DNA from: Candidatus Shapirobacteria bacterium
GTDB taxonomy: Bacteria; Patescibacteriota; Microgenomatia; UM-FILTER-40-11
Assembly (NCBI GenBank): GCA_020059745.1
Contig: JAGVBK010000002.1
Coordinates: 104,301 to 168,300, forward strand
Reading direction: 5' to 3'
Length of the DNA stretch: 64,000 bases
Shown: positions 2,947-62,194 of the stretch, piece after piece
Layout of the letters: every line of letters starts with the position of its first letter
How positions within the stretch are numbered: position 1 is the first letter of the stretch
Position numbers and translations under genes: made by a program
The notes under the pieces: generated by a model
Database searches by the model: none
What the model saw: only the letters and a program-made list of their open reading frames with translations
Told to the model about the DNA's origin: nothing

Positions 2947-5900
2947 TTAGTATACCCTAATTTTTTCCTGATTCAAAGCAACAATCGCGCTTATGGTTGC
3001 GAGCAGCAAGGTAAAACCAAAATATTGAAGATACTGGGGGATGAAAATCAGAACTACTCTGCTCTCGTTTTCCGAGCCAGGCAACACCCAACCGTTTTCC
3101 CAATTATTGACAAGAACATGATCATTAATCTCCCGGCCAACTAAAGGCAGTAGAAAAGCGGGTCTTTTAATTAAGCTTTCTCCTTCGAAGTAAGCTTTCC
3201 AGCCTTCATGATAAGACTGGGATAAGACAAGAAGGCTTTCCTGCCGTGGGGGGACATCGATTTTATAAAGGCTGGGGTTGGGGTGAGAACTTTCCGCCTT
3301 CATGTATTTAATTGGAGCCAAAGAAACATCTTTTTGGAAACGAATTCCAGAAAGAAAGTAGTATGGAATTGGGTTGATAGTAATCATCCCCAAATCATTG
3401 ACAGATTCATGCCTGCCAATAGAGATATTGTCAAAATGGAGCCGGTAGCCAATGCCTGATTTCTGCATCGGTGGTTGGATAATGAACTTCTCTCCTCCTT
3501 CTTTTTGAAGATAAAATTCCTGGTCTGCCCTTCTTGCACTTTGATTTTCCAGCCAAAAAAGCAGGCTTTTGCCTTTGACATTTTCATTCTCAACTTTAAT
3601 AAGATAGCCGAATTTATGAAGCAAATTCTCAAAACTAAAAGTGGCTGAGCAGTTGGTGGAATTAACGGCGCTAAGCCTTAGAAAGTTATTCCCCTGTTTA
3701 TTTGCAATTTCATTTTTGACTGTACCGAAACTGAATTGATTGCAGTTTTTAGCTTCTAAGCCTCCGGCAGTCGGATTAACTTCACCGCTGAAATAGCCCC
3801 CAACCTTAGGAACAATCACCTCGATATTCCTTCCCTGAACATTTACCTTTGGAATAAGATACTTAACATCGCTAAAGTCCCCGGGGTTTACCCAAATGAG
3901 TTCTCTGCCGTCAAAATCTGGAAGCCTTAGTTCATATGACAAAACCTCTTGAGGCACTTCCTTTGAAAAAATAAAGCTGTCTTTTGTTTCCTTAATATTA
4001 AAATCAAAACCTTCTGTCCCCCTGCCGGTAAAAATGGAACGGAACGGATAGTAGTAGTCCGCTTCTTTTTGCTCTGAATATATCCCCAAATCCAAAAAAG
4101 CCCGGTCATAACTTCCCCACCTGTAAGAAGAAGCCACTTTGGCAGTATCGGTAGAAATAAAGACATAATTTTCTATTGGATAGTCCAGATTAACTTTATA
4201 AAGCAGGATATTGCCAAAAGTTTTTTCAAGGCTGAATTTTGGCGAAGAAAACATCTCTTCAAGCTCGTCAAAACCCAGAGCTTTATAGTTGCCGGTATTG
4301 TAAATGTTTTTATCGACAAGCGCGTATTCTATTTGGTACTTATCAAATATCTTTTCAAATATTTCATTTTTCCTTGAAAAAAGAGCATACGACATTTCCC
4401 AGTAATAGTTCTCGTTTTGGCTGCTCCACATGTCAAAATTACGGTCTAGAATCGGCTGGTTAATACCATACCAAATAAAACCCGAGCCGGTATAATTCCA
4501 ACGGTAAAGACTCCAACCCCAAAAACTTGATTGGGGAAAATCGGCAATTCTCCCGTCTTTACCGCTTTTTTTAAGATAAGAAAAAAGCTCAAAATAGTTT
4601 TCGGGAATGCGGGCTTTTACCCTTGGGTAAAATAATTTACCCTGAAAAACCGGATACAAATAAAACACGGGCAAAAAAGCCAAAAGGACAATGATTAAGA
4701 GGCTCTTTTTTGAGTTTGCCTTTGAACTTAACCAAAAACAAAATGCACCAAAATACAAAGAAAGGCAAAAAGCAAGCAAAGCGGAAAACTTAGTAAAAGG
4801 AAATCTGAACATCTGAGAAAATAGCGGAAGCTTAAAGAAAGCTTTTGACAAAAGCGAAATAACCGGTGTTTCGTTGGCTAAAACTAAAAAAGACAAGAAG
4901 AAAACCGGCAAAAAAGAGATTAATTTTTTAAATTTTAAAAATGAAATTAAAGCGCCTGCCGTTCCTAAGAAAAAAAGCAAAAACCCAAAGAAAGAAATCA
5001 CCGGATTTTCGAGGTGTCCTGTCCAAGGCGCCATTAGATAATTCACTGTTCCGTTCTCACTTGTTTCCGTGGTATCAAACCAAAAACCTTTAAGAAGAAC
5101 GACATTTTTTAGATCCCCGTATTTTTTGTTTTTAAGTAAGTTGTCTTCGGTTGTCATCTGGCTAATTTTTGACTGGACCGTGATATTAACATCCGAAAAG
5201 ACAAAATAAAGATTTGGCAAAAGCCAAAAAGCGTTAGTGATAAAAATAAAAGCAAAAGAAAGCAAAACCCTCTTAAGACTGCCTTTGTTTTGCAAAAGAT
5301 AAACAAAAGAAGCCAAACCCCAAGCCATTAAATAGACCGCAAAAAAGGTGCCTACATATCCCTGTGGCACAGCCAGCAAATTCACCAAAAGAAGAAAAAT
5401 AAGGCTCTTTTTATCCCTTTTCTCCAGGAAATTAAGATTAACTAAAAACAACCAGGGCAAAGAAGCAAAGTGGTGAGAAAAAGCTTCAAAAGGAACATAA
5501 AAAAGCTGAATTGTGGCCAGGTTAAAAAGATAAAAGACAGAGCCGGCCAGAGCGGAAAGTTTTTTCTTACCTTTTCCTGCCAAGAGAAAAGAAAGTAAAA
5601 AGTAAATCCCCAAAGACCCCAGGTAAAGCATTAGAAAGTGGTAAAAATATCTGAGAAACGAACTTGGGAGAAACAAAGAAAAAATCCATAAAATTAGCTG
5701 CCTTGGCAAGTCTGCGGCATGGCCCATGCCACCCATTAAACCCAAGCCCTGATACTCCTGCCAGGAAGCAAAAAATGATCTTTTAAGATTAAGGCCAAAA
5801 TCAAACTCAGGATGAAGGTTATCCCAACCTGAAAGCCATGTTCCGGCATGAGAATTTGCAATGCTTATAGCCAAAAAGACGGCAGTTAAAATCAGCACCG

Positions 5901-5959: not shown

Positions 5960-7240
5960 TTATCCGTTTAACAAATAAGCGTATTTTTCTCCGATTGCCG
6001 ACCAGCTTCTTTTTTCAGACATGATCTTGGAAAACTTTTTCATTTTCCCCTGCAAAACCTTGCTTTCCGACACTTCTTTTAATTTTTTAAACAAATCTTT
6101 TGAATCAAGACTAAAAATAATCTCTTCCATTTTAAGATTACTTTTTTCTAATGCCTCTTTTATGTCCAAAGAAAGGCAGTAAGCGCTTAAAGGCTCAGAA
6201 AACAAAACCGGCTTTTTATAGGAAAAGGCAATGGACAGTGGTCCGCTGCTGCTGACAAATATCCGGTAAGGAAGTATTACTACATCACTTAAGCTAAAAA
6301 AGTCGTTTATATTTTCTTCATTAATAAAGCCGGTTATTTCGATGTTTTTACCTGCTTTTTTAGCGCATTTGTAAATAGCGGCAATGAATTTTTTATAAAC
6401 CCTATCCTCTTCATGAGTTTTTGCCGGACCGCCGGCCATTATGAGTTTGATGTTTGTTTTTTTGTTCTTTGAAAAATAATGGCTTAAGGTTTTAACCAAC
6501 CAGTCCGAACCCTTATACCAAGTCAAAAAACCAAAACAAAGAACCACAAAATCACTCTCTTTAATTCTCATTTCTTTAAGTTTCACTCTTGAAAGAGCTT
6601 CTTTTCTTTTGGAAGTTCTTCCGTTTGGCTCAACTCCTAATGAAATAGTAACCACCTTTGAGCGGTCAGAGGTAAACTGAAGAGCATGGTTCCTTAGTAT
6701 TTCTTCAAAAGCCACTGTTTTATGACTTAGGTTAACTCCAAGAAAGTAAAGTGTTTTTAAAGCCAAGGTGTATGCTTTCGCCCGAAAACTGTCTTTTTTA
6801 ATTCCCAATTGTTCCACTGCTAAATTGGCATCAGTTAAAATGCCGTGAGAAACAAAATAAACTTTTTTTTGCATGAGCCTTAAAAATAAAAGCAGTGCCG
6901 GAACGCCGGCAAGAAGATAGCGTTTATTGCCGAATATCGCCCATTCAAAAGCAAAAAACACTTTTAAACAGTTTCTCTCCTTTAGTATCTCCCGCACAAT
7001 CTGCAAAAAAAGCTTTGGCTTGTTTCTATCCCAAACTCTTTTTACCTTGATTTTGTCTTCAAAGTATTCTTCTTTACCACCGTCAAGCTTGTCCGCCAAA
7101 ACCACAAACTTTAGTTTTTTCTCTTTTTCCATGCTGGAGAGCAGGGTTTTTTTGGAATAAGGAGCAACTGCCGAATAAGGGTGGTTGTGTAAACTTCCTT
7201 TAGGAGGATAAGTGGTAATAACTAGAATTTTTTCTTTCAT
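5960..7240 (-). CDS. Glycosyltransferase, GT1/GT4-like
   Basis: 426 aa with Rossmann-like halves. The C-terminal half shows GFINEE...SDVVILPY...SSGPL, resembling the GT-B retaining glycosyltransferase signature. Confidence 0.65.
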   Translation of the reverse strand: MKEKILVITTYPPKGSLHNHPYSAVAPYSKKTLLSSMEKEKKLKFVVLADKLDGGKEEYFEDKIKVKRVWDRNKPKLFLQIVREILKERNCLKVFFAFEWAIFGNKRYLLAGVPALLLFLRLMQKKVYFVSHGILTDANLAVEQLGIKKDSFRAKAYTLALKTLYFLGVNLSHKTVAFEEILRNHALQFTSDRSKVVTISLGVEPNGRTSKRKEALSRVKLKEMRIKESDFVVLCFGFLTWYKGSDWLVKTLSHYFSKNKKTNIKLIMAGGPAKTHEEDRVYKKFIAAIYKCAKKAGKNIEITGFINEENINDFFSLSDVVILPYRIFVSSSGPLSIAFSYKKPVLFSEPLSAYCLSLDIKEALEKSNLKMEEIIFSLDSKDLFKKLKEVSESKVLQGKMKKFSKIMSEKRSWSAIGEKYAYLLNG

Positions 7241-7255: not shown

Positions 7256-8062
7256 TTAATATTCGAAAACTTTTTTAAAAGAAGAAACCACTACCTTTCT
7301 GAATTGTGGCCTTATCTGATAAATATTCTTTAGATCATTAACTTTAATGGCAAACATTTCTTTGAAAGCTCTCAAAATATCCCTTACCAGGTTAACTTTA
7401 CTTGACTTACTTATATGTTTCCAAGTAACAGGCAGCTCGACAATTCTGTAATTAAGCTTGTTGCTGACATAAATTACTTCCGGATCCAGCCCCCATCTTT
7501 CTTGAGTCAATCTGGGAAAAACATCGCGACAGACTTGGTAAGAAAAAACCTTAAAGCCGCCGGTAAAATCAGCAATTTTAATTCCTAAAACAGTTTGGAG
7601 AATTTTACTGTGAACCGTGCCGATTATTTCCCTAACCATACTTCTTTTAACCAAGGAAATAGTTTGGGGAAGCTTTTTGCTGCCTACTAAAACTTCATAA
7701 CCTTTATGCATAAAGAGAGAAAATTCTTTAAGGTTTTCAAGAGGAATTGACATGTCGCCGTCTAAAAACATGCCAAAATCAGTATTTACCTCTTTTACTC
7801 CCTGCATGACCGCATATCCCCGGCCTTTGTTTAAGGGATAGGAAATAAGGAAAATTTCCGTTTGGTCAATAATATTTCCGGAGTACTGTCTTTGGAAATT
7901 TTTCAGTAAAGAAAGAGTTTTGTCTTTACTGCCGTCATCAACAAAAATAAGTTTTTCAATCTTAATGCTTTTTGGGCTTTTGTAATTGACAAGATAACCC
8001 AAAGTTTTTTTAAGCCTTTTTTCTTCATTATAGAGAGGGACAATGACAGTTAATGTTTTCAT
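7256..8062 (-). CDS. GT2 glycosyltransferase (polyprenol-phosphate sugar transferase-like)
   Basis: 268 aa. Contains VIVPLYNEE, VDDGSKDKT and a DGD motif, typical of dolichyl/undecaprenyl-phosphate glycosyltransferases. Confidence 0.8.
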   Translation of the reverse strand: MKTLTVIVPLYNEEKRLKKTLGYLVNYKSPKSIKIEKLIFVDDGSKDKTLSLLKNFQRQYSGNIIDQTEIFLISYPLNKGRGYAVMQGVKEVNTDFGMFLDGDMSIPLENLKEFSLFMHKGYEVLVGSKKLPQTISLVKRSMVREIIGTVHSKILQTVLGIKIADFTGGFKVFSYQVCRDVFPRLTQERWGLDPEVIYVSNKLNYRIVELPVTWKHISKSSKVNLVRDILRAFKEMFAIKVNDLKNIYQIRPQFRKVVVSSFKKVFEY

Positions 8063-8063
8063 C

Positions 8064-8279
8064 TTAAAACCCCTTTTCTTTCATGCACCTTTGGTATGAG
8101 TCCCAATCAGGGACACGGGCGCTGCTGCCGCCCTCAGGGTTCTCATAAGTATTGACGCCCACTGTCATACACCCCTGAACAGCATTGTTTTTTATCATTC
8201 TTTCCGATTGCCTGTATCCCAAAACCACCGCTCCAATAAGGGCGGCGCCGATTAAGATAGTTCCGATATCTTTTCTCAT
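8064..8279 (-). CDS. Small single-pass membrane protein, unknown function
   Basis: The internal Met (MRKDIGTILIGAALIGAVVLGY...) gives a 71-aa protein with one TM helix and two Cys. The longer 94-aa version has an unlikely N-terminus. Confidence 0.45.
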   Translation of the reverse strand: MRKDIGTILIGAALIGAVVLGYRQSERMIKNNAVQGCMTVGVNTYENPEGGSSARVPDWDSYQRCMKEKGF

Positions 8280-8403
8280 TTTTTCACCGATAAAAGCATA
8301 AAATAAATTTTTATACTTTAGTCGATGCGTAACCCGAAGAGTGTTCATTTACCTTATGAAGGTAAACTACTAACCCTCCGGGTTACGCGATCGGCATGCA
8401 ATG

Positions 8404-9549
8404 CTACTTGACAAGTCCCAGATACTGCTCCCGCCAGAATGTGGCTGCAATAGCCATTCCTTCCCACCCTACGGGAATTCTGGCTTTGGGATAGCTTGGG
8501 ATCAATATCAAGTTTGGGTCGGTCGGCACCTCCAGACGCTCTCCGTCGAACGGAAATTCGAACGGATTCCTGATGAAAAACGCGTCTTGGGGAGGTGCCT
8601 GCCAGTTGCCGTTGCCCAGATCGACGAGCCTGACACTCGGTGCAAGGCCGAATGTTGAGCGGATCCACGCTTCGTTCACCTGTGAAGGCGAAAAAGCGGG
8701 GGTCGCACTGGGAACGACGGGCGTTGGGGCAGCTAGCGGAACTGGTGTCTGAGTTGGCACAACTTGGGCTACCAAAGTAGCTGTCGGCTGTACCAAACTT
8801 GAGACCTGACCGATTTGACCAACTGAGGTCACAGGGATCACGCCAGTGATCCTGTGATACTCGTCAATACTGAAAGGCCTGAACGTGATCCCCTGTACAG
8901 GACCACACCAACCAGCAGGAATTCCTGACCCAACTGCTTCTGGGGGAAAACCCTCTTCTAGGGTCCTCCCGTGCAACTCCCGCTGTCTGCGGTCCGCCAT
9001 CCAGCCATCTTGCCGGAAAGGAGTGAAGTTACAAACCTCAATGGAAACAATATTCCCAAAGAGGTCTTTCTCCTCCGGCACCTTCCAGCTCCATGGCTCA
9101 CCCCTAGCCCTGCTAACCTCGCTGGGCTCAATGGACGGCTGAGCCTGTCTCCTTGTTGCAAGGATAACAAACTCATCCACTGACCTTGGCCAATCCTCCA
9201 TGACCTCAAGGCCTAGAACCCTGATGTCGTCCAGAGTCTGACCGCCAGTCAGAGTAAGCCCGAAAGCCTGAACCCTAGGTGACGGTGCCATTGCAACCGT
9301 CGGTTCGGATTGAACAGCCTCCTGACCGGGAGTCGGAGTCACAAGGACCTCAACAACCCGAGTCACTTCGACCGGAACCTCCTTCTCGACAACGACGGTC
9401 TCCTTGACCACCTGAGGGACGACCCTGGTGACCTCGACCGGGACCGTCTCCTTGACGATCTCGGGCGTTGGTGTCAGAGCACTTTCCCTGAGCGCACAAC
9501 CCGTGATCATCACGATAGCCACCATTACAACCAGGAATATCATCTTCAT
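8404..9549 (-). CDS. Lipoprotein, unknown function (GC-rich island)
   Basis: 381 aa. It has a signal peptide with lipobox MITGC and an AGGAGG-type SD upstream. An N-terminal tandem KETV.VEVTRVV repeat and Pro/Thr linkers are present. I recognised no family. Confidence 0.6.
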   Translation of the reverse strand: MKMIFLVVMVAIVMITGCALRESALTPTPEIVKETVPVEVTRVVPQVVKETVVVEKEVPVEVTRVVEVLVTPTPGQEAVQSEPTVAMAPSPRVQAFGLTLTGGQTLDDIRVLGLEVMEDWPRSVDEFVILATRRQAQPSIEPSEVSRARGEPWSWKVPEEKDLFGNIVSIEVCNFTPFRQDGWMADRRQRELHGRTLEEGFPPEAVGSGIPAGWCGPVQGITFRPFSIDEYHRITGVIPVTSVGQIGQVSSLVQPTATLVAQVVPTQTPVPLAAPTPVVPSATPAFSPSQVNEAWIRSTFGLAPSVRLVDLGNGNWQAPPQDAFFIRNPFEFPFDGERLEVPTDPNLILIPSYPKARIPVGWEGMAIAATFWREQYLGLVK

Positions 9550-9559
9550 CTCAACCCTC

Positions 9560-10072
9560 CTAATCCCTCTGATGTCTCCGAAGAAACCCTGGAATGTCCA
9601 ACTCCGAACCGGGCGGATCCAGAGGATTTTCAGGCGTCTGCCTTTCCTCTTTCATCTCCGCCGCCCTGAAATTCAACCGTTCCAATTCCTCGATAAGCTC
9701 CTCCCTTTTCTCGTTCAGCTTCTTGATCTCATTTCTCGCCTGCTCGAGTTGAACTCTTTTTTCGCCAACGACACTAGTCAACTCTGCCACAGTCTTCTGT
9801 AGTTCGAGAACTTCTCCGTACAACTCATTTTTTCGACGCTGGCCTTCCTCAATCTTCTCGTCTGTTGTTGAGGCAACTTCCTCTTTCCTCCCTCTCACGT
9901 TCAAGATTATGGAAAGAACGAAAAGCAAAACCCCAACGACCAGGAGAATCCAGACCCAAGGCTCAAAAATCGCGAAAAAGTCGACGAGGACAAGCCCAAC
10001 AACAATATTTACCAGGCTCACCCCCAAAAACACAGTACCAACAATAAGTAAGACCAACACCAGGCGCTTCAT
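9560..10072 (-). CDS. Membrane-anchored coiled-coil protein (GC-rich island)
   Basis: The start is taken at MKRLVLVLLIVG, which has an AGGAGA SD 7 nt upstream. There are two or three TM helices, then a heptad-like Glu/Lys-rich segment (LQKTVAELTSVVGEKRVQLEQARNEIKKLNEKREELIEELERL). Confidence 0.55.
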   Translation of the reverse strand: MKRLVLVLLIVGTVFLGVSLVNIVVGLVLVDFFAIFEPWVWILLVVGVLLFVLSIILNVRGRKEEVASTTDEKIEEGQRRKNELYGEVLELQKTVAELTSVVGEKRVQLEQARNEIKKLNEKREELIEELERLNFRAAEMKEERQTPENPLDPPGSELDIPGFLRRHQRD

Positions 10073-10285
10073 GTCTTCTTCTCCTTTGCATGCCGATGTC
10101 AAAGAACTACTTTTGGCTCCTTCCAAGAACCGCAATTGGTCCTCTTTCTGGGCCAAAAGACCGATTTTTCAAAATCGGAATAATACCCACTATTAATGAA
10201 CATCTTTCCGACTTCAAAAGACAACCAGCCGGAGAGAGAAAGATACGCTTGCGCGTAAACAAACTCTCTCCGGCGAGATGCCATC

Positions 10286-11068
10286 CTACTCGAACCAAAC
10301 CACTGCGGTCCAGACCTTAACGTGCCCCGGCCCCTTGAATTTGTCTAGGTTTTCCCCAAGAATTGGGTTCCACCCGGTGACCAAGGCATTCTCGGGCACA
10401 GCGAGCATGACAGGGTTTCCACCACTGTTATAGTCAAAGCTGCACCCATCCTTCCGAAGGGCCCAGACACCACCAGTGACAACATTGGCTTGAAGCCAAT
10501 CGATGCTTGGGCAACCCTCGGGTTGGTCCGGAATCGGGAGCCTCGGCAAAGGCGGATTGAACACCACTGGGAGAAACAAAATACTTTCTCCAGGTGTCGG
10601 AACCACCGTTGGCTCGGCGGTTGCCATTGCAGTTGGTTCCGGCGTGGCGGTCGGCGTTGCCGTTACAGTTGGTACTGTAACCGTTGGCTCGGCCGTTGCC
10701 GTGGCGCTCTGTGGCTCAATCCACAGAACCCCGTCCCAAAATTCTCCCGAACCAGGTCCTTCCACCAGAAGGTCTTTTTGGCCCTCCGGCTCCGGCCGCG
10801 GATCCCAACCAGTCATCTTGGATCCACCCGCGGGGACAACGAGCAAGATCGGCTCCTCAAACGGGCCTCTTCCGCTCTCGAAAACAAAATCACAACCTTC
10901 GTCGGGCCCGACTTTCCACATCGAGAGTTCACCCCCGATGTTTTCCGCGACCCACTCGAGATCCGGGCACTCTTGCGGGGGTTCCGGAATGGCAACCTCC
11001 GCTGAGAGCTGGAACGGCAAAACTGCCGCCAGCGCGACCACAACCGCGAGTACAAGACTGCGCTTCAT
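10286..11068 (-). CDS. Secreted protein with internally duplicated 2-Cys domain (GC-rich island)
   Basis: The start is taken at MKRSLVLAVVVALAAV (signal peptide), with an AGGAGGGG SD. Two homologous ~85-aa domains (CPDLEW...GCDF...TGWDP and CPSIDW...GCSF...TGWNP) are joined by a Thr/Pro/Ala linker. Confidence 0.6.
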   Translation of the reverse strand: MKRSLVLAVVVALAAVLPFQLSAEVAIPEPPQECPDLEWVAENIGGELSMWKVGPDEGCDFVFESGRGPFEEPILLVVPAGGSKMTGWDPRPEPEGQKDLLVEGPGSGEFWDGVLWIEPQSATATAEPTVTVPTVTATPTATPEPTAMATAEPTVVPTPGESILFLPVVFNPPLPRLPIPDQPEGCPSIDWLQANVVTGGVWALRKDGCSFDYNSGGNPVMLAVPENALVTGWNPILGENLDKFKGPGHVKVWTAVVWFE

Positions 11069-11216
11069 TTCCCCTCCTGGGATCATAAGGATGGCAAATA
11101 CTCAATGTGCTTCTGGTCTCACCAGCCAGATTGGCGCTTACGCCTTTCTAGTTATTGAAACCAGAAAAGGAAATTGAACTCCTAGTTTCCTTTCCCGGCT
11201 TCAACCGGAAACTTCT

Positions 11217-11849
11217 TTATTTTTTAAGACGAAGCAGCATGTATCCGGCAAGACCGGCAATTGAGGTTAAAGGGGCAACGAAAAGCAAACTAGAACCTGT
11301 GGCAGGAGTTTCACCTAAAACTTTTTTAACTTTGGTAACACAAACTTTAGAAGTGTCTTCTCTTTCTTCACCGCCGAATTTAGCCCTGACAGTGTTTTTG
11401 ACATCACAGTCAAAATCTTTATCACTCGGAGTGGAAACAACAACTGTTTCAATCTGTTTCTCTTCTGATTCGCCAGGTCCTAAATCTAAAATATCAAAAG
11501 TAAGGCTTCCTGACTCAAGCTTTAACTCAGCCGGAAGAAAGTCTGTAACAGTCACTTTTTCAAAAGTGCTGTTGCTGTTGTTAATGATTTTTATTCTGAA
11601 AATAACTTTTTCGCCAATGCTGAATTTATAGCCTTCAGGAGTAATGTCGGCTAAATTGTCTTCGAACCTTTTGTCAATCGGGCTCCAAACCTTTTTATCT
11701 AAAACAAGCTCTTCAACTTCGGTACAGACTTCGCCGCCGCCGTATAAAGATTCGCAACGGATTGCTCCAAAAGCATTTTTAGGAGAAATAATAAAAGCCG
11801 CAATAAATAAAATTGCGGTTAACAAAGCATGTTTCCTGTCCATTTTCAT
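11217..11849 (-). CDS. Surface protein with DUF11-like repeat domain and C-terminal sorting signal
   Basis: It has a signal peptide and a V.F.I...N.....F..V.V.D.LP..L core shared with the 12846-13490 protein. The C-terminus reads GETPATG, then a hydrophobic helix and an RLKK tail, a variant of LPXTG. Confidence 0.65.
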   Translation of the reverse strand: MKMDRKHALLTAILFIAAFIISPKNAFGAIRCESLYGGGEVCTEVEELVLDKKVWSPIDKRFEDNLADITPEGYKFSIGEKVIFRIKIINNSNSTFEKVTVTDFLPAELKLESGSLTFDILDLGPGESEEKQIETVVVSTPSDKDFDCDVKNTVRAKFGGEEREDTSKVCVTKVKKVLGETPATGSSLLFVAPLTSIAGLAGYMLLRLKK

Positions 11850-11974
11850 TTTTATTAAGGCTAAATAATAAAGACATGGCGTATTATAGGGCATGTTTAT
11901 TGCTTTGTCAACTGCCGATTTCTTGATTTTAGTAAACTTTTAAGAGATAATATCGCCGTTTACTAGAGGATATT

Positions 11975-12730
11975 ATGGAAATAATTCTTTTTGATTCATC
12001 CTGGGAAAAGGAAAAAATAATACCGGTTGATATTCCGGTTCCTAAACCTGTGGAACCAAAAATTTCTTCTTCTTTCCCTTTCGCAAAATTTGCCAGAGGC
12101 CTTGCTTTGGGCTTAATCGGCATTTCTCTTTTTGTTTTTGGCGCAGCAGTTTTGCCAATAATCAAGCTGGAATTAAGCTACCGCCTTAATCCTAAAAATG
12201 AAGCTGAAGCAAGAGAATACTTTCCCAAAACTCCAAGTTATGAGGTTGCCTTAGAAAACAAAAAGCAGCTTGCCTCACAAGAAGCAGCCAAATACGGGGT
12301 TGATACAGATTTTTCTCTGGTCATCCCTAAAATTTCTGCTACCTCAAAAATCATTGCCAATGTGGACCCGGCAGACGAAAATAAATACAAAGCTGCTCTT
12401 AAAAATGGAGTTGCCCACGCCAGCGGCACCAAATTCCCTGGCAGCAAAGGCACTATTTATCTTTTTGCCCATTCCACCAACACTTTAGTTAATGTTTCCC
12501 GCTACAATGCTGTCTTTTATCTAGTTAAAGAGCTGGAACCCGGAGACCAGGTTATCATCTTTTTTGCCGGTCTAAAATATTCGTACCGGGTAACCGAAAA
12601 GGTCATCACTACTCCAGAAGATTTATCTTTGATAAAAGACAACCAATCAACTGAAAAGCTAATTCTTCAAACCTGTTGGCCGCCGGGAACAACCTTAAAA
12701 CGGCTCATGGTTGTAGCAGAAAGAATTTAA
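11975..12730 (+). CDS. Sortase-family transpeptidase (copy 1)
   Basis: 251 aa with an N-terminal TM helix. Contains IYLFAHST (catalytic His region) and LILQTCWPPGT (TLxTC-like Cys motif). Confidence 0.8.
   Translation: MEIILFDSSWEKEKIIPVDIPVPKPVEPKISSSFPFAKFARGLALGLIGISLFVFGAAVLPIIKLELSYRLNPKNEAEAREYFPKTPSYEVALENKKQLASQEAAKYGVDTDFSLVIPKISATSKIIANVDPADENKYKAALKNGVAHASGTKFPGSKGTIYLFAHSTNTLVNVSRYNAVFYLVKELEPGDQVIIFFAGLKYSYRVTEKVITTPEDLSLIKDNQSTEKLILQTCWPPGTTLKRLMVVAERI
12281..12392 (+). repeat. Near-identical 112-nt tract shared by the two sortase paralogs (copy 1)
   Basis: Differs at only 2 positions from 13871-13982, while the flanking coding sequence is clearly diverged. Shorter identical blocks lie at 12449-12482 = 14039-14072 and 12653-12687 = 14243-14277. 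Confidence 0.9.
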
Positions 12731-41103: not shown

Positions 41104-41355
41104 GCCGAAGTAACTCAGCGGCCCGCCCGCCACGCAAGCCAGCTTGCTGGTGTTGCGGGCAGGTAGAGCAAATGTTTTGCCTACCCGCAGTGCTACAGCG
41201 TTGCAGGCGGGCCTGCCCACAGAAGCCTAGCCCTTCTAGCTCAACGGCAGAGCGACGGTTTTGTAAACCGTTGATCAGGGTTCAATTCCCTGGAAGGGCT
41301 CCAGTTTAGGTAGGCGGGTAAACATAGGTCGTCAGTTCAATCCTGACCGTCGGCT
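41104..41355 (+). other. Interrupted tRNA-Thr(UGU)-like gene enclosing an intact tRNA-Thr
   Basis: The 5' part (41104-41179) supplies the acceptor, D-arm and anticodon-stem 5' strand. The 3' part (41318-41355) supplies the anticodon-stem 3' strand, variable loop, T-arm GUCAG-UUCAAUC-CUGAC and acceptor. The acceptor pairs 6/7. There is a 42-nt GC-rich hairpin in the D-loop. See findings. Confidence 0.55.
41230..41303 (+). tRNA. tRNA-Thr (anticodon UGU)
   Basis: Manual cloverleaf: acceptor GCCCUUC/GAAGGGC, D-stem GCUC/GAGC, anticodon arm ACGGU-UUUGUAA-ACCGU, T-arm CAGGG-UUCAAUU-CCCUG, with an encoded CCA. Confidence 0.85.
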
Positions 41356-53089: not shown

Positions 53090-53872
53090 TTAAGAATTTA
53101 TTTTAAATTTTTCTCGAAATATTAACCAAGGAAACACAACTGTTGCCGTCCACACCCTTTTTAAGTGCCCCGGCTTTGTTAAACCTCGCCAAAGCCACTC
53201 TAAACCAATCTTCCGCATCAAAAAAGGCGCCCTCTTACTAAAACCCGTTAAAAAGTCAAGAGAGCCACCTATGCCGATAAACACTTTGGCGTTTATTTTT
53301 TCTTTATTGCCAATAATCCACTCTTCTTGCTTAACCATGCCGTGGCAAGCGAAAACAATTTTAAGCCCGCCTGCCGGATGGGCAGGTTTTAAATCTTGCC
53401 TGTCGGCAGACAGGTTTTCTATTTTAAATTCTAAGTTATCGAGGTTAACAAATTTGACCCGAGGGTACTTTTCAGATAACTTTTTAAAAAGAAACTCAGC
53501 TTCCCCTCTATCTCCTCTTCTGGCTCCGGCAATACCCACAGACCAGCCTTTACTATTAGCTGTTTCAAGTAAGCAGGAAACAAGATCAGCACCGCTTACT
53601 CTTTCTTTAACTTCCTTCCTAAATACTCTTGAAAAAAGAACCAAACCAAAACCGTCAGGAATGTTGATATCAGCCACTTTAAGGATTTCTTTGAATTTTA
53701 GGTTTTTTTGAGCTTCAACTAGAAATTCAGGATTAGGAGTAAAAATAATCAGGGGGGGCTTAGCCTCAAAACCTGGCTTTTCTTCAATTAACCCCTCAAT
53801 TTGGTCTAGCAAACTTGGCAGCTGAGTGCTATTTATGGGTACACCTAGAATATTAGCTATATTTCGGCTCAT
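53090..53872 (-). CDS. WecB/TagA/CpsF-family glycosyltransferase
   Basis: Contains PDGFGLV, GIGGSLDFLTG...RAP and GLEWLWR motifs. Confidence 0.8.
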   Translation of the reverse strand: MSRNIANILGVPINSTQLPSLLDQIEGLIEEKPGFEAKPPLIIFTPNPEFLVEAQKNLKFKEILKVADINIPDGFGLVLFSRVFRKEVKERVSGADLVSCLLETANSKGWSVGIAGARRGDRGEAEFLFKKLSEKYPRVKFVNLDNLEFKIENLSADRQDLKPAHPAGGLKIVFACHGMVKQEEWIIGNKEKINAKVFIGIGGSLDFLTGFSKRAPFLMRKIGLEWLWRGLTKPGHLKRVWTATVVFPWLIFREKFKINS

Positions 53873-61960: not shown

Positions 61961-61989
61961 TTTAAAATCAACCCCCAAAATGCTAAAAT
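61961..61989 (+). promoter_or_regulatory. Promoter upstream of the tRNA-half-like leader and tRNA-Pro
   Basis: TTTAAA (61961-61966), a 17-nt spacer, then TGcTAAAAT (61981-61989). Confidence 0.5.
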
Positions 61990-61999
61990 TCTATTGATA

Positions 62000-62084
62000 G
62001 CGAGCGTAGTTCACCCGCCTGCAAAAGCTGACGCTTTAGCGTCTGCGGGCAGGTCGGTAGAATGCACGGTTCAGCCTGCCCGCC
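62000..62084 (+). other. tRNA 5'-half-like leader with GC-rich D-loop hairpin
   Basis: GCGAGCG-UA-GUUC-A[40-nt hairpin 62014-62053]UCGGUA-GAAU-G-CACGG-UUC..., then GCCUGCCCGCC. The D-arm is near-identical to that of the downstream tRNA-Pro. No matching 3' half lies nearby. Confidence 0.5.
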
Positions 62085-62095
62085 AACAACAACGC

Positions 62096-62170
62096 CGGAA
62101 TGTAGTTCATCGGTAGAACGCTCGGTTCGGGACCGAGAGGTAGAGGGTTCAATTCCCTCCATTCCGACCA
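62096..62170 (+). tRNA. tRNA-Pro (anticodon CGG)
   Basis: Acceptor CGGAAUG/CAUUCCG, D-arm GUUC-AUCGGUA-GAAC, anticodon arm CUCGG-UUCGGGA-CCGAG, T-arm GAGGG-UUCAAUU-CCCUC, with an encoded ACCA. Confidence 0.85.
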
Positions 62171-62194
62171 GCTTCTAAATGCTAAAATAAATAA

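Follow-up and report, generated by a model that had tools for sequence, protein, structure and literature searches.

A probable relic of a tRNA-in-tRNA insertion upstream of tRNA-Pro(CGG) in a Candidatus Shapirobacteria contig and its place in a family of nested tRNA cassettes

The DNA analysed here, referred to as the window, is a stretch of 64,000 nucleotides (nt) from a Candidatus Shapirobacteria bacterium (GenBank assembly GCA_020059745.1, contig JAGVBK010000002.1, positions 104,301 to 168,300). Window positions 62000-62095, directly upstream of an intact transfer RNA (tRNA) gene, tRNA-Pro(CGG), are very likely the left-hand relic of a tRNA-in-tRNA insertion, consisting of the decaying 5' half of an outer tRNA gene (the shell), the left arm of an inserted cassette and a spacer. 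The segment is a decaying remnant with no evident present function, yet it is a bona fide truncated member of a widespread class of nested cassettes found in Patescibacteria, also known as the Candidate Phyla Radiation (CPR). Proteins encoded nearby point to a Microgenomates-like member of this group as the source of the window.

Direct reading of the sequence identifies 62000-62074 (forward strand) as the 5' half of a former tRNA-Pro(CGG), which breaks off within the anticodon loop and whose D loop contains a palindromic insert of 40 nt. The acceptor strand and the start of the D arm read GCGAGCG-TA-GTTC-A (62000-62013), the remainder of the D arm and the anticodon-stem strand read TCGGTA-GAAT-G-CACGG (62054-62069), and the loop bases are TTCAG (62070-62074), with G35 changed to A. 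The D arm is of type B and, like the CACGG stem, is as found in tRNA-Pro of relatives. With the insert removed, the shell (GTAGTTCA/TCGGTAGAAYGCWCGGTTC) matches the downstream tRNA-Pro, and a repeat search aligned 62054-62072 with 62110-62128 at 89 % over 19 nt, which bears out a preliminary description of this locus as a tRNA 5'-half-like leader whose D arm matches that of the tRNA-Pro downstream. The insert itself (62014-62053, reverse strand, CCCGCCTGC...GCGGGCAGG) is an empty palindromic element placed after A14; its reverse complement is CCTGCCCGC-N22-GCAGGCGGG, and it belongs to the same family as the 29-42-nt elements of CPR loci and IMG/VR contigs.

The shell abuts the cassette left arm CCTGCCCGCC (62075-62084, forward strand), which equals the left arm of most of 65 distinct metagenome cassettes and matches the relative L003 over CCTGCCCG. 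Spacer s1, AACAACAACGC (62085-62095, forward strand; 4-19 nt in other cassettes), leads from the left arm to the inner tRNA-Pro(CGG) at 62096-62170 (forward strand), which has an encoded CCA, was called by both ARAGORN and Rfam (68 bits), and is a functional gene closely related to the cassette-borne tRNA-Pro of L221/L226 and L172/L260. An interruption inside the anticodon loop, followed by an intact tRNA-Pro(CGG), had been proposed before and is upheld. Two details of that proposal had to be changed: the half does not end at UUC, running two nt further to UUCAG (that is, UUCGG with G35 changed to A; the junction in relatives is TTCGG/CCTGCCCG), and GCCUGCCCGCC, taken as a leader that pairs with a distant 3' half, is instead the conserved left arm CCTGCCCGCC of the inserted unit. 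The order TTCAG/CCTGCCCGCC-AACAACAACGC-tRNA-Pro(CGG) at 62070-62096 fits the left-side definition of the family (an arm CCTGCCCR abutting the loop and a tRNA with the same anticodon 4-19 nt further on), and the locus is a truncated member of that family. Forms with a left arm only are rare (2 of 151 tRNAs in a biased sample, the window Pro locus being one of them). Exact arm motifs in the window are confined to two tRNA loci, this one and a tRNA-Thr locus at 41104-41355, and five element copies or arm pairs were found in the window, all at these two loci.

On the right-hand side, the sequence at 62171-62194 (forward strand) is a probable deletion junction at which the right spacer, the right arm GCAGGCGGG and the 3' shell are missing and ...CCGACCA is fused to GCTTCTAAATGCTAAAAT, the promoter region of a DHH gene. 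The same flank (CGACCA GCTCTAAAATGCTA) follows the outer tRNA of L003 and the element integrated at its 3' end. No right arm GYAGGCGGG with a matching 3' tRNA half is present from 62171 onwards, and no T arm with a CGCTCGC acceptor 3' strand occurs anywhere in the 64-kb window, in agreement with the earlier observation that no 3' half follows. Of the two explanations then offered, loss fits the arrangement in L003, where the 3' half lies directly after the inner tRNA, and there was no sign, in the window or in the complete nests, of a half encoded elsewhere behind a GGCGGGCAGGC-type leader. The right arm and 3' shell of the window Pro locus have most likely been deleted.

The locus at 41104-41355 is a complete example of the nested design, with anticodon UGU. 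The outer 5' shell of tRNA-Thr(UGU) (41104-41179, forward strand) contains a reverse-oriented 42-nt palindromic insert in its D loop (41122-41163) and is followed in its anticodon loop by an empty 32-nt palindromic element in forward orientation (41180-41211, CCTACCCGC AGTGCTACAGCGTT GCAGGCGGG), the loop sequence of which matches IMG/VR copies such as L095. The complete loaded cassette occupies 41212-41318 (forward strand) and is composed of the left arm CCTGCCCAC, a spacer, tRNA-Thr(UGU) at 41230-41303, the spacer GTTTAG and the right arm GTAGGCGGG; the A/T change between the two arms is compensatory, and the spacers are homologous to those of the Thr cassettes of L218/L235. The outer 3' shell (41319-41355, forward strand) reads TAA, ACATA, GGTC, T arm, CGTCGGC, T, and the two shell halves together show, as read from the sequence, one mismatch each in the acceptor, D and anticodon stems. 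The D-loop inserts of both window loci are reverse-oriented copies of one palindrome, with reverse complements that start with CCTGCCCGC and end with G(C/G)(A/C)GGCGGG. The shared design of the two loci that had been noted earlier is upheld.

The orthologous Pro site is filled or empty in different relatives. A complete nest is present in L003/L004 (GCA_018830165.1; DHH neighbour 83 % identical) behind the same promoter, including the TGCTAAAAT box found upstream of the window shell, and consists of a 5' half with a D-loop insert, the junction TTCGG/CCTGCCCG, tRNA-Pro(CGG), the junction GCAGGCGGG/GACCGTG... and a 3' half. The left junction TTCGG/CCTGCCCG is common to L003, L172, L221 and L260. 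When the 111-nt unit at 1838-1948 of L003 is deleted, the joined sequence agrees over 56 nt, without a mismatch, with the uninterrupted tRNA-Pro of L002 (an 88 % relative), which sits just upstream of DHH, and the excision shows no target duplication. The tRNA-Pro of L006 (69 %) is also uninterrupted, and in L007, L011, L013 and L015 (59-67 %) the promoter is directly followed by a plain tRNA-Pro, without a leader; a scan of genome contigs with the DHH neighbour recovered one relative, from the same genome as L007. The comparative check proposed earlier for the Thr locus gave a corresponding result: L138 (VanW neighbour 79 % identical, same Joint Genome Institute (JGI) sample) has a plain tRNA-Thr(UGU) whose acceptor and D arm equal those of the window outer Thr shell, of which it is the ortholog, and the tRNA-Thr(UGU) of L140 is likewise plain. 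The plain and uninterrupted Pro and Thr genes in relatives indicate that, at both window loci, the outer halves are former residents and the inner tRNAs are newcomers. A leader absent or variable in relatives had been expected of a decaying duplicate; it is indeed absent from L007, L011, L013 and L015 and differs in L003, and it is decaying, as the remnant of a resident gene and not as a local duplicate.

Further observations were made in these relatives. The reverse strand of L140 has a stray GCCTGCCCAC arm about 150 nt upstream of the plain tRNA-Thr(UGU) and the 10-mer AGAAGCCTAG right after the tRNA; the same 10 nt cross the spacer-tRNA junction at window positions 41221-41230, and both may be traces of an erased nest. 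The T loop of the window tRNA-Pro is TTCAATT, and that of the tRNA-Pro(CGG) of L003 (1906-1922), L011, L013 and L015 is TGCGAxx, which puts G at position 55 instead of the near-universal U55. The contigs of L002 and L006 begin inside the tRNA (nt 1), and the short contigs L001, L005, L138 and L139 likewise end or begin in or beside such genes, which suggests that nests, or strain polymorphism at these sites, break metagenome assemblies.

The architecture was surveyed by scanning metagenomes with the pattern CCTGCCCR-N84-102-GYAGGCGGG-N13-19-GTTCRA, which matched at least 120 loci; the figures that follow hold among the 120 matches listed, made up of 79 low-GC loci (GC 0.32-0.55) and 41 GC-rich loci. 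An intact tRNA begins 4-19 nt past the left arm in 71 of the 79 low-GC loci. In the GC-rich loci the arms never enclose a tRNA, a single tRNA-Ser call overlapping them by coincidence, and these 41 matches are due to chance. The 71 nests are independent loci and represent 65 distinct units with 17 anticodons (Pro, Thr, Arg, Val, Gln, Cys, Asn, Glu, Met and Ala), which agrees with the earlier argument that two loci of one design are no one-off accident. Source names place the hosts in Kazan-3B-28, Magasanikbacteria, Portnoybacteria and other Patescibacteria. Every nest holds an intact inner tRNA, and in complete nests the 3' half follows in cis after the right arm GCAGGCGGG, at a distance of 6-20 nt from the inner tRNA, with the shell halves about 110-140 nt apart. 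Units are 105-141 nt long, of which the tRNA takes 71-77 nt. Unit boundaries are exact; excision restores a 7-nt anticodon loop and gives an outer tRNA with the same anticodon in 43 of 71 cases by ARAGORN and in 63 of 70 by direct loop reconstruction, the ARAGORN failures being mostly shells that bear further inserts. Insertion points range from loop position 33/34 to 38/39, and each tRNA type has largely its own; Pro(CGG) cassettes occur at two positions, 35/36 and 36/37, which argues for more than one de novo insertion. The extended arm consensus, CCTGCCCGCCAT-GCC ... GGC-RATGGCAGGCGGG, can be folded as a 12-bp helix with conserved T.G and C.A pairs or, slipped by 4 nt, as a CCTG head with a perfect CCCGCC/GGCGGG stem, and both registers place the inner tRNA at the hairpin apex.

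Spacers are characteristic of the tRNA type (...GCCTAA for Thr, including the window Thr cassette; CCGTACTT/GGCAAG for Arg(UCG)). Cassettes are 100 % identical between L151 and L266 in unrelated flanks, 100 % identical between L221 and L226 with different 5' shells, and 92 % identical between L172 and L260, the shells of which are 66 % identical. Type-specific spacers and near-identical cassettes in differing shells or flanks indicate that each cassette acts as one transferable unit. Recombination between direct repeats inside nests is evident from additional repeats of the 3' half, spacer and right arm in L160 and L167 and from the loss of the segment from the D loop to the left arm in L152, L165 and L194. 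In the triple nest of L198, three successive layers of tRNA-Arg(UCG) come to light when two 106-nt units are taken out one after the other, followed by the D- and T-loop hairpins. L260 also appears triple on reading, and its outermost Pro shell has an insert at the D-loop site occupied by 62014-62053 in the window. Triple nesting is a signature of repeated invasion of the currently functional copy.

Shells and inner tRNAs differ in their state of preservation. The mean number of stem mismatches per shell is 0.50 in the anticodon stem and 0.13 in the T stem, compared with 0.03 and 0.04 in the inner tRNA (0.63 against 0.07 combined); inner tRNAs have essentially no stem mismatches, and the few counted are artefacts of ARAGORN boundary calls. 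Raw counts of two or more mismatches were obtained for 31 of 70 shells and 8 of 70 inner tRNAs, all 8 being artefacts, and the shell count is itself partly inflated by D-stem scoring in the presence of inserts and by ARAGORN boundary artefacts. The 5' half contains at least 8 extra nt in 25 of 70 shells. In shells, empty palindromes of either orientation occupy D-, T- and anticodon-loop regions; inner and plain tRNAs are free of them, and among 81 empty elements there was no case in which a tRNA that could otherwise be called is interrupted. Gene conversion could explain the shells that are identical to their inner tRNA (L153, L160). The shells are dispensable and the inner genes are functional.

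A history of the window locus can be proposed from these data. A resident tRNA-Pro(CGG) with its own promoter would have been invaded after loop position 36 by a short cassette whose ends, CCTGCCCGCC ... GGCAGGCGGG, are imperfect inverted repeats and whose hairpin apex bears a whole tRNA-Pro(CGG). The inner tRNA would have taken over the function, leaving the outer gene as a dead shell that later gained a second, empty copy of the palindrome in its D loop and the G35 to A change, and the 3' shell, right spacer and right arm would have been lost, most simply by recombination between the repeated tRNA 3' ends (...CCGACCA). The promoter-like site at 61961-61989 (forward strand; TTTAAA, 17 nt, TAAAAT with the TG of an extended -10) is presumably the promoter of the former resident gene, which would now drive the leader and the inner tRNA-Pro. 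Removal of tRNA 5' leaders is an established function of RNase P, and the present 96 nt are probably a mere 5' leader of the tRNA-Pro precursor, expressed from the old promoter and removed by that enzyme.

For the spread of the cassettes, a non-autonomous DNA element moved in trans by a structure-specific enzyme is preferred, resembling repetitive extragenic palindromic (REP) elements and miniature inverted-repeat transposable elements (MITEs). The occurrence of empty copies in both orientations, nested copies in viral contigs, cargo other than tRNA and exact, duplication-free junctions all point to such an element acting at the DNA level. Nesting in cognate genes only would follow if disruption of an essential, single-copy tRNA gene could be survived only where the insert itself supplies a replacement. 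The main alternative for the spread, "homing" by homologous recombination across the tRNA halves, probably also contributes, as does gene conversion.

Eight empty copies were found in 528 kb of CPR loci. Copies of 33-36 nt (e.g., CCTGCCCGCAATGCTTCGCAACGCGAGGCAGGCGGG), several per contig, are present in the IMG/VR contigs L033, L034, L045, L054, L064, L067, L089, L095, L136 and others; these contigs have a GC of 0.48-0.61 and the copies are without tRNAs. Where contigs were examined (e.g., L034) the copies are intergenic, often within CACAGAG/CTCTGTG repeat regions, and nested copies occur in the viral contigs L040, L060, L065 and L068. Empty elements are thus common in IMG/VR, but a phage origin of the cassettes was considered and set aside: two scans of IMG/VR returned no tRNA-loaded unit, and the matches were due to chance (five) or had other cargo. 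Non-tRNA cargo of about 75-110 nt lies between the same arms in L196 (4746-4849), L202 and L268, with three related copies in L202 (about 5993-6108 and 9620-9731 on the plus strand and one on the minus strand), two of which are flanked by TTCGA/.../TAT. A different small RNA may be encoded here, or the element family may simply carry such cargo outside the CPR. Two protein families near nests are weak leads. A family of about 220 amino acids (aa), with an N-terminal helix-turn-helix of transposase/resolvase type and a C-terminal LYWAEGSK motif (possibly LAGLIDADG-like), lies within about 1 kb of the unit at 4 of the 79 loci, with different tRNA types (L167 1716-2423, L236 2652-3311, L249 7419-8090, L266 about 3974-4723); searches of Pfam, NCBIfam and PDB gave no identification of its C-terminal domain, and it is a possible homing or mobilising enzyme. 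Stand-alone GIY-YIG proteins of 82-100 aa are encoded at four nest loci (L165 2844-3107, L192 5433-5735, L219 12694-12945, L242 5982-6227), and one of these genes directly abuts a tRNA.

Several points weigh against the interpretation of 62000-62095 as the relic of an insertion into a resident tRNA-Pro. The acceptor strand GCGAGCG is unlike that of tRNA-Pro, which in bacteria normally begins with C1-G72, and rearrangement of part of the shell may go beyond simple decay. The shell D arm is of type B in the window and of type A in L003/L002, so that the two lineages would record different invasion histories, and the former presence of a 3' shell and right arm in the window lineage is deduced from relatives and was not observed there. 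A perfect cloverleaf is kept in 31 of 70 shells, which could reflect recent insertion or gene conversion and could also mean that some shells are under selection. Finally, no transposase family was enriched near the 79 low-GC loci in a comparison of gene neighbourhoods, and no mobilising enzyme was identified.

The perfect cloverleaves are also one of the observations that would be expected if the nests worked at the RNA level, with the units excised from the transcript and the shells ligated to a second tRNA, or with the leader acting as a processing or regulatory scaffold for the inner tRNA. The exact boundaries that restore a 7-nt anticodon loop and the long helix formed by the arms, with the inner tRNA at its apex, point the same way, as does the predicted fold of the window leader, in which GCGGGCAGG pairs with CCUGCCCGC (z = -2.3). 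We nevertheless regard such a module as unlikely. Mismatches, inserts and deletions pile up in the shells and not in the inner tRNAs, the whole 3' shell is gone from the window locus, the empty elements face either way with respect to the tRNA, a freedom incompatible with an RNA signal, and not one of the 81 empty elements interrupts a tRNA that could otherwise be called. Rfam searches, at gathering thresholds over the whole window and at E<=10 over both loci, returned only tRNAs and an L10 leader, with no ribozyme and no intron (including Intron_gpI), and gave no match on 16 element-bearing viral loci. The pairing of GCGGGCAGG with CCUGCCCGC was rejected as a functional structure: it is not conserved in the D-loop insert of L003, and it follows from the presence of two opposite-oriented copies of one palindromic family. 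A protein-dependent variant, in which the base of the CCUGCCCGCC/GGCAGGCGGG helix would be cut, the inner tRNA freed and the shell rejoined, with relics such as 62000-62095 as leftovers, is similarly improbable; if it were true, one gene would give two tRNAs, a bacterial counterpart of archaeal tRNA splicing.

A plain local duplication, in which slippage produced a partial tandem copy of the tRNA-Pro 5' half that is now decaying, would involve no mobile element and would account for the near identity of the D arm to that of the downstream tRNA and for the restriction of the leader to one lineage. It is very unlikely, as the acceptor and anticodon-stem strands differ from those of the inner tRNA, the conserved CCTGCCCGCC arm stands exactly at the loop break, the orthologous site of L003 is a complete nest whose shell equals the resident gene of L002, and the architecture is common to the 71 independent loci. 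Tandem duplication or integration of a circular intermediate in the anticodon loop was also set aside by reasoning on the expected product, which would be tRNA-arm-arm-tRNA and not the observed half-arm-tRNA-arm-half.

Genomic islands that target and restore tRNA genes are well known (PMC4383910), and the leader could be attachment-site debris, a displaced tRNA fragment left by an integrative element. A candidate of this kind is present in L003 (1997-4975, also in L004), where an element of about 3 kb, encoding a 519-aa large serine recombinase (Resolvase, Recombinase and Zn-ribbon) just past the outer 3' shell together with a 276-aa protein, has inserted at the 3' terminus of the outer tRNA-Pro, giving the junctions ...CCCCGAC/TGAAAG and ...TCTCGAC/CAGCTC; it is absent from the window and from L002. 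This origin is very unlikely: in L003 the element has junctions of its own at the 3' end of the tRNA, outside the nest, there is no recombinase near the window locus, and the gap between fragment and tRNA is 21 nt, made up of arm and spacer, with a tRNA that is complete and not hybrid. To our knowledge, 5' fragments are not the usual leftovers of anticodon-loop integrases. The serine recombinase was likewise rejected as the enzyme inserting the cassettes, being outside the nest in L003 and absent from the window.

A split tRNA of the Nanoarchaeum type, whose functional 5' half would be joined to a 3' half encoded elsewhere through GC-rich complementary leaders, would explain why the half ends in the anticodon loop before a GC-rich stretch and why both halves exist at 41104-41355, and is scarcely credible given that complete cases keep the 3' half in cis immediately behind the right arm, that the window has no matching 3' half, that an intact tRNA-Pro(CGG) 21 nt downstream makes the halves unnecessary, that the shell has a 40-nt D-loop insert and A35 and shells decay family-wide, and that the junctions have no motif like the bulge-helix-bulge (BHB) of archaeal introns, the arms forming a continuous 9-12-bp helix (with T.G and C.A) or a slipped, perfect 5-6-bp helix without 3-nt bulges.

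The nested cassettes share features with several known systems. Archaeal split and intron-containing tRNAs (Nanoarchaeum equitans, Caldivirga, BHB introns and the intron transposition proposed for Thermoproteales) are similar in having breaks in the anticodon, D and T loops, GC-rich complementary sequences at the break and several interruptions per gene; the nests, in contrast, are found in bacteria, have both halves in cis on either side of a second, complete tRNA that shares their anticodon, lack a BHB and show decay of the outer gene in place of splicing. Genomic islands and prophages integrate into tRNA and transfer-messenger RNA genes and carry a replacement segment (Islander/TIGER, PMC4383910), and the likeness extends to self-compensating insertion in an essential tRNA gene, displaced fragments and arrays after repeated events. 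Islands, however, extend over kilobases and bring an integrase gene; they renew only a portion of the target, as a rule its 3' part, with the displaced fragment ending up at the far end, whereas the unit here is about 105-115 bp, without genes, carries a whole tRNA and is flanked by both halves. Group I introns have been reported in Patescibacteria tRNA genes, at anticodon-loop positions 35/36 and 36/37 (PMC13011429), in the same phylum and target region and with tRNA mis-annotation as a shared consequence; those introns are of canonical group I length, match group I covariance models and are self-splicing, unlike the present units, which are mostly tRNA. A group I intron is expected to measure roughly 200 nt or more and to have a conserved catalytic core that RF00028-type models detect.

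The definition of a REP element, a 20-40-nt GC-rich imperfect palindrome present in multiple copies and in both orientations, also describes the empty elements. They resemble REPs and bacterial interspersed mosaic elements (BIMEs), with their REP-associated tyrosine transposases (RAYTs) and the insertion sequences IS1397 and ISKpn1 that insert into REP loops, in being GC-rich imperfect palindromes of about 30-40 nt with a conserved terminal tetranucleotide (CCTG plus a CCCGC/GCGGG hairpin in one register), in their multiple copies in both orientations, and in nested loops and insertion into hairpin loops. They differ from them in a CCTG instead of a GTAG head, in lying in the loops of tRNA genes and not between genes, and in being able to carry a tRNA at the apex. 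MITEs and Rickettsia palindromic elements (RPEs) are likewise short, non-coding and bounded by inverted repeats, and RPEs are tolerated in genes, including RNA genes; the present elements have terminal inverted repeats and, unlike these, no target-site duplication, a functional tRNA as cargo, a cognate anticodon loop as target and serial nesting. The tRNA-targeting islands, as self-compensating insertions, are closest in logic and the REP/MITE-like palindromes closest in form. The nested cassettes have no Rfam family, and no description of them was found by motif or concept in the literature, coverage of which was incomplete, the paper on group I introns (PMC13011429) coming nearest; an apparently widespread mode of tRNA overwriting in the ultra-small bacteria of the CPR/Patescibacteria seems to be undescribed.

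Two other features of the window were recorded. Side by side at 53366-53415, inside a mechanically listed open reading frame of 260 aa (53090-53872, minus strand), stand two GC hairpins with a T run behind each; one of them, the first (CCCGCCTGCCGGATGGGCAGG), resembles a miniature reverse-oriented copy of the palindrome, and the second, GCCTGTCGGCAGACAGGT, shares an 18-nt identity with the viral contig L040. The region 8001-12000 has a GC of 0.47-0.52, compared with about 0.40 elsewhere, and its genes include those for a sortase, a DUF11 protein and a holin-like protein.

Positions 62000-62095 are best annotated as a tRNA-Pro pseudogene fragment with a cassette arm and not as a functional RNA. 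If the family is of the kind proposed here, essential tRNA genes of the CPR are repeatedly overwritten from within, a single event destroying the resident gene and supplying its replacement, and this would constitute a mode of tRNA gene turnover and horizontal tRNA replacement for which no description was found. It would explain pseudo-tRNA halves and odd tRNA leaders in the CPR as well as contig breaks at tRNA genes in CPR metagenome-assembled genomes, and would point to an activity that targets the hairpin loops of tRNA genes. It would also provide a bacterial, DNA-level precedent for a late origin of split and interrupted tRNA genes through mobile elements.

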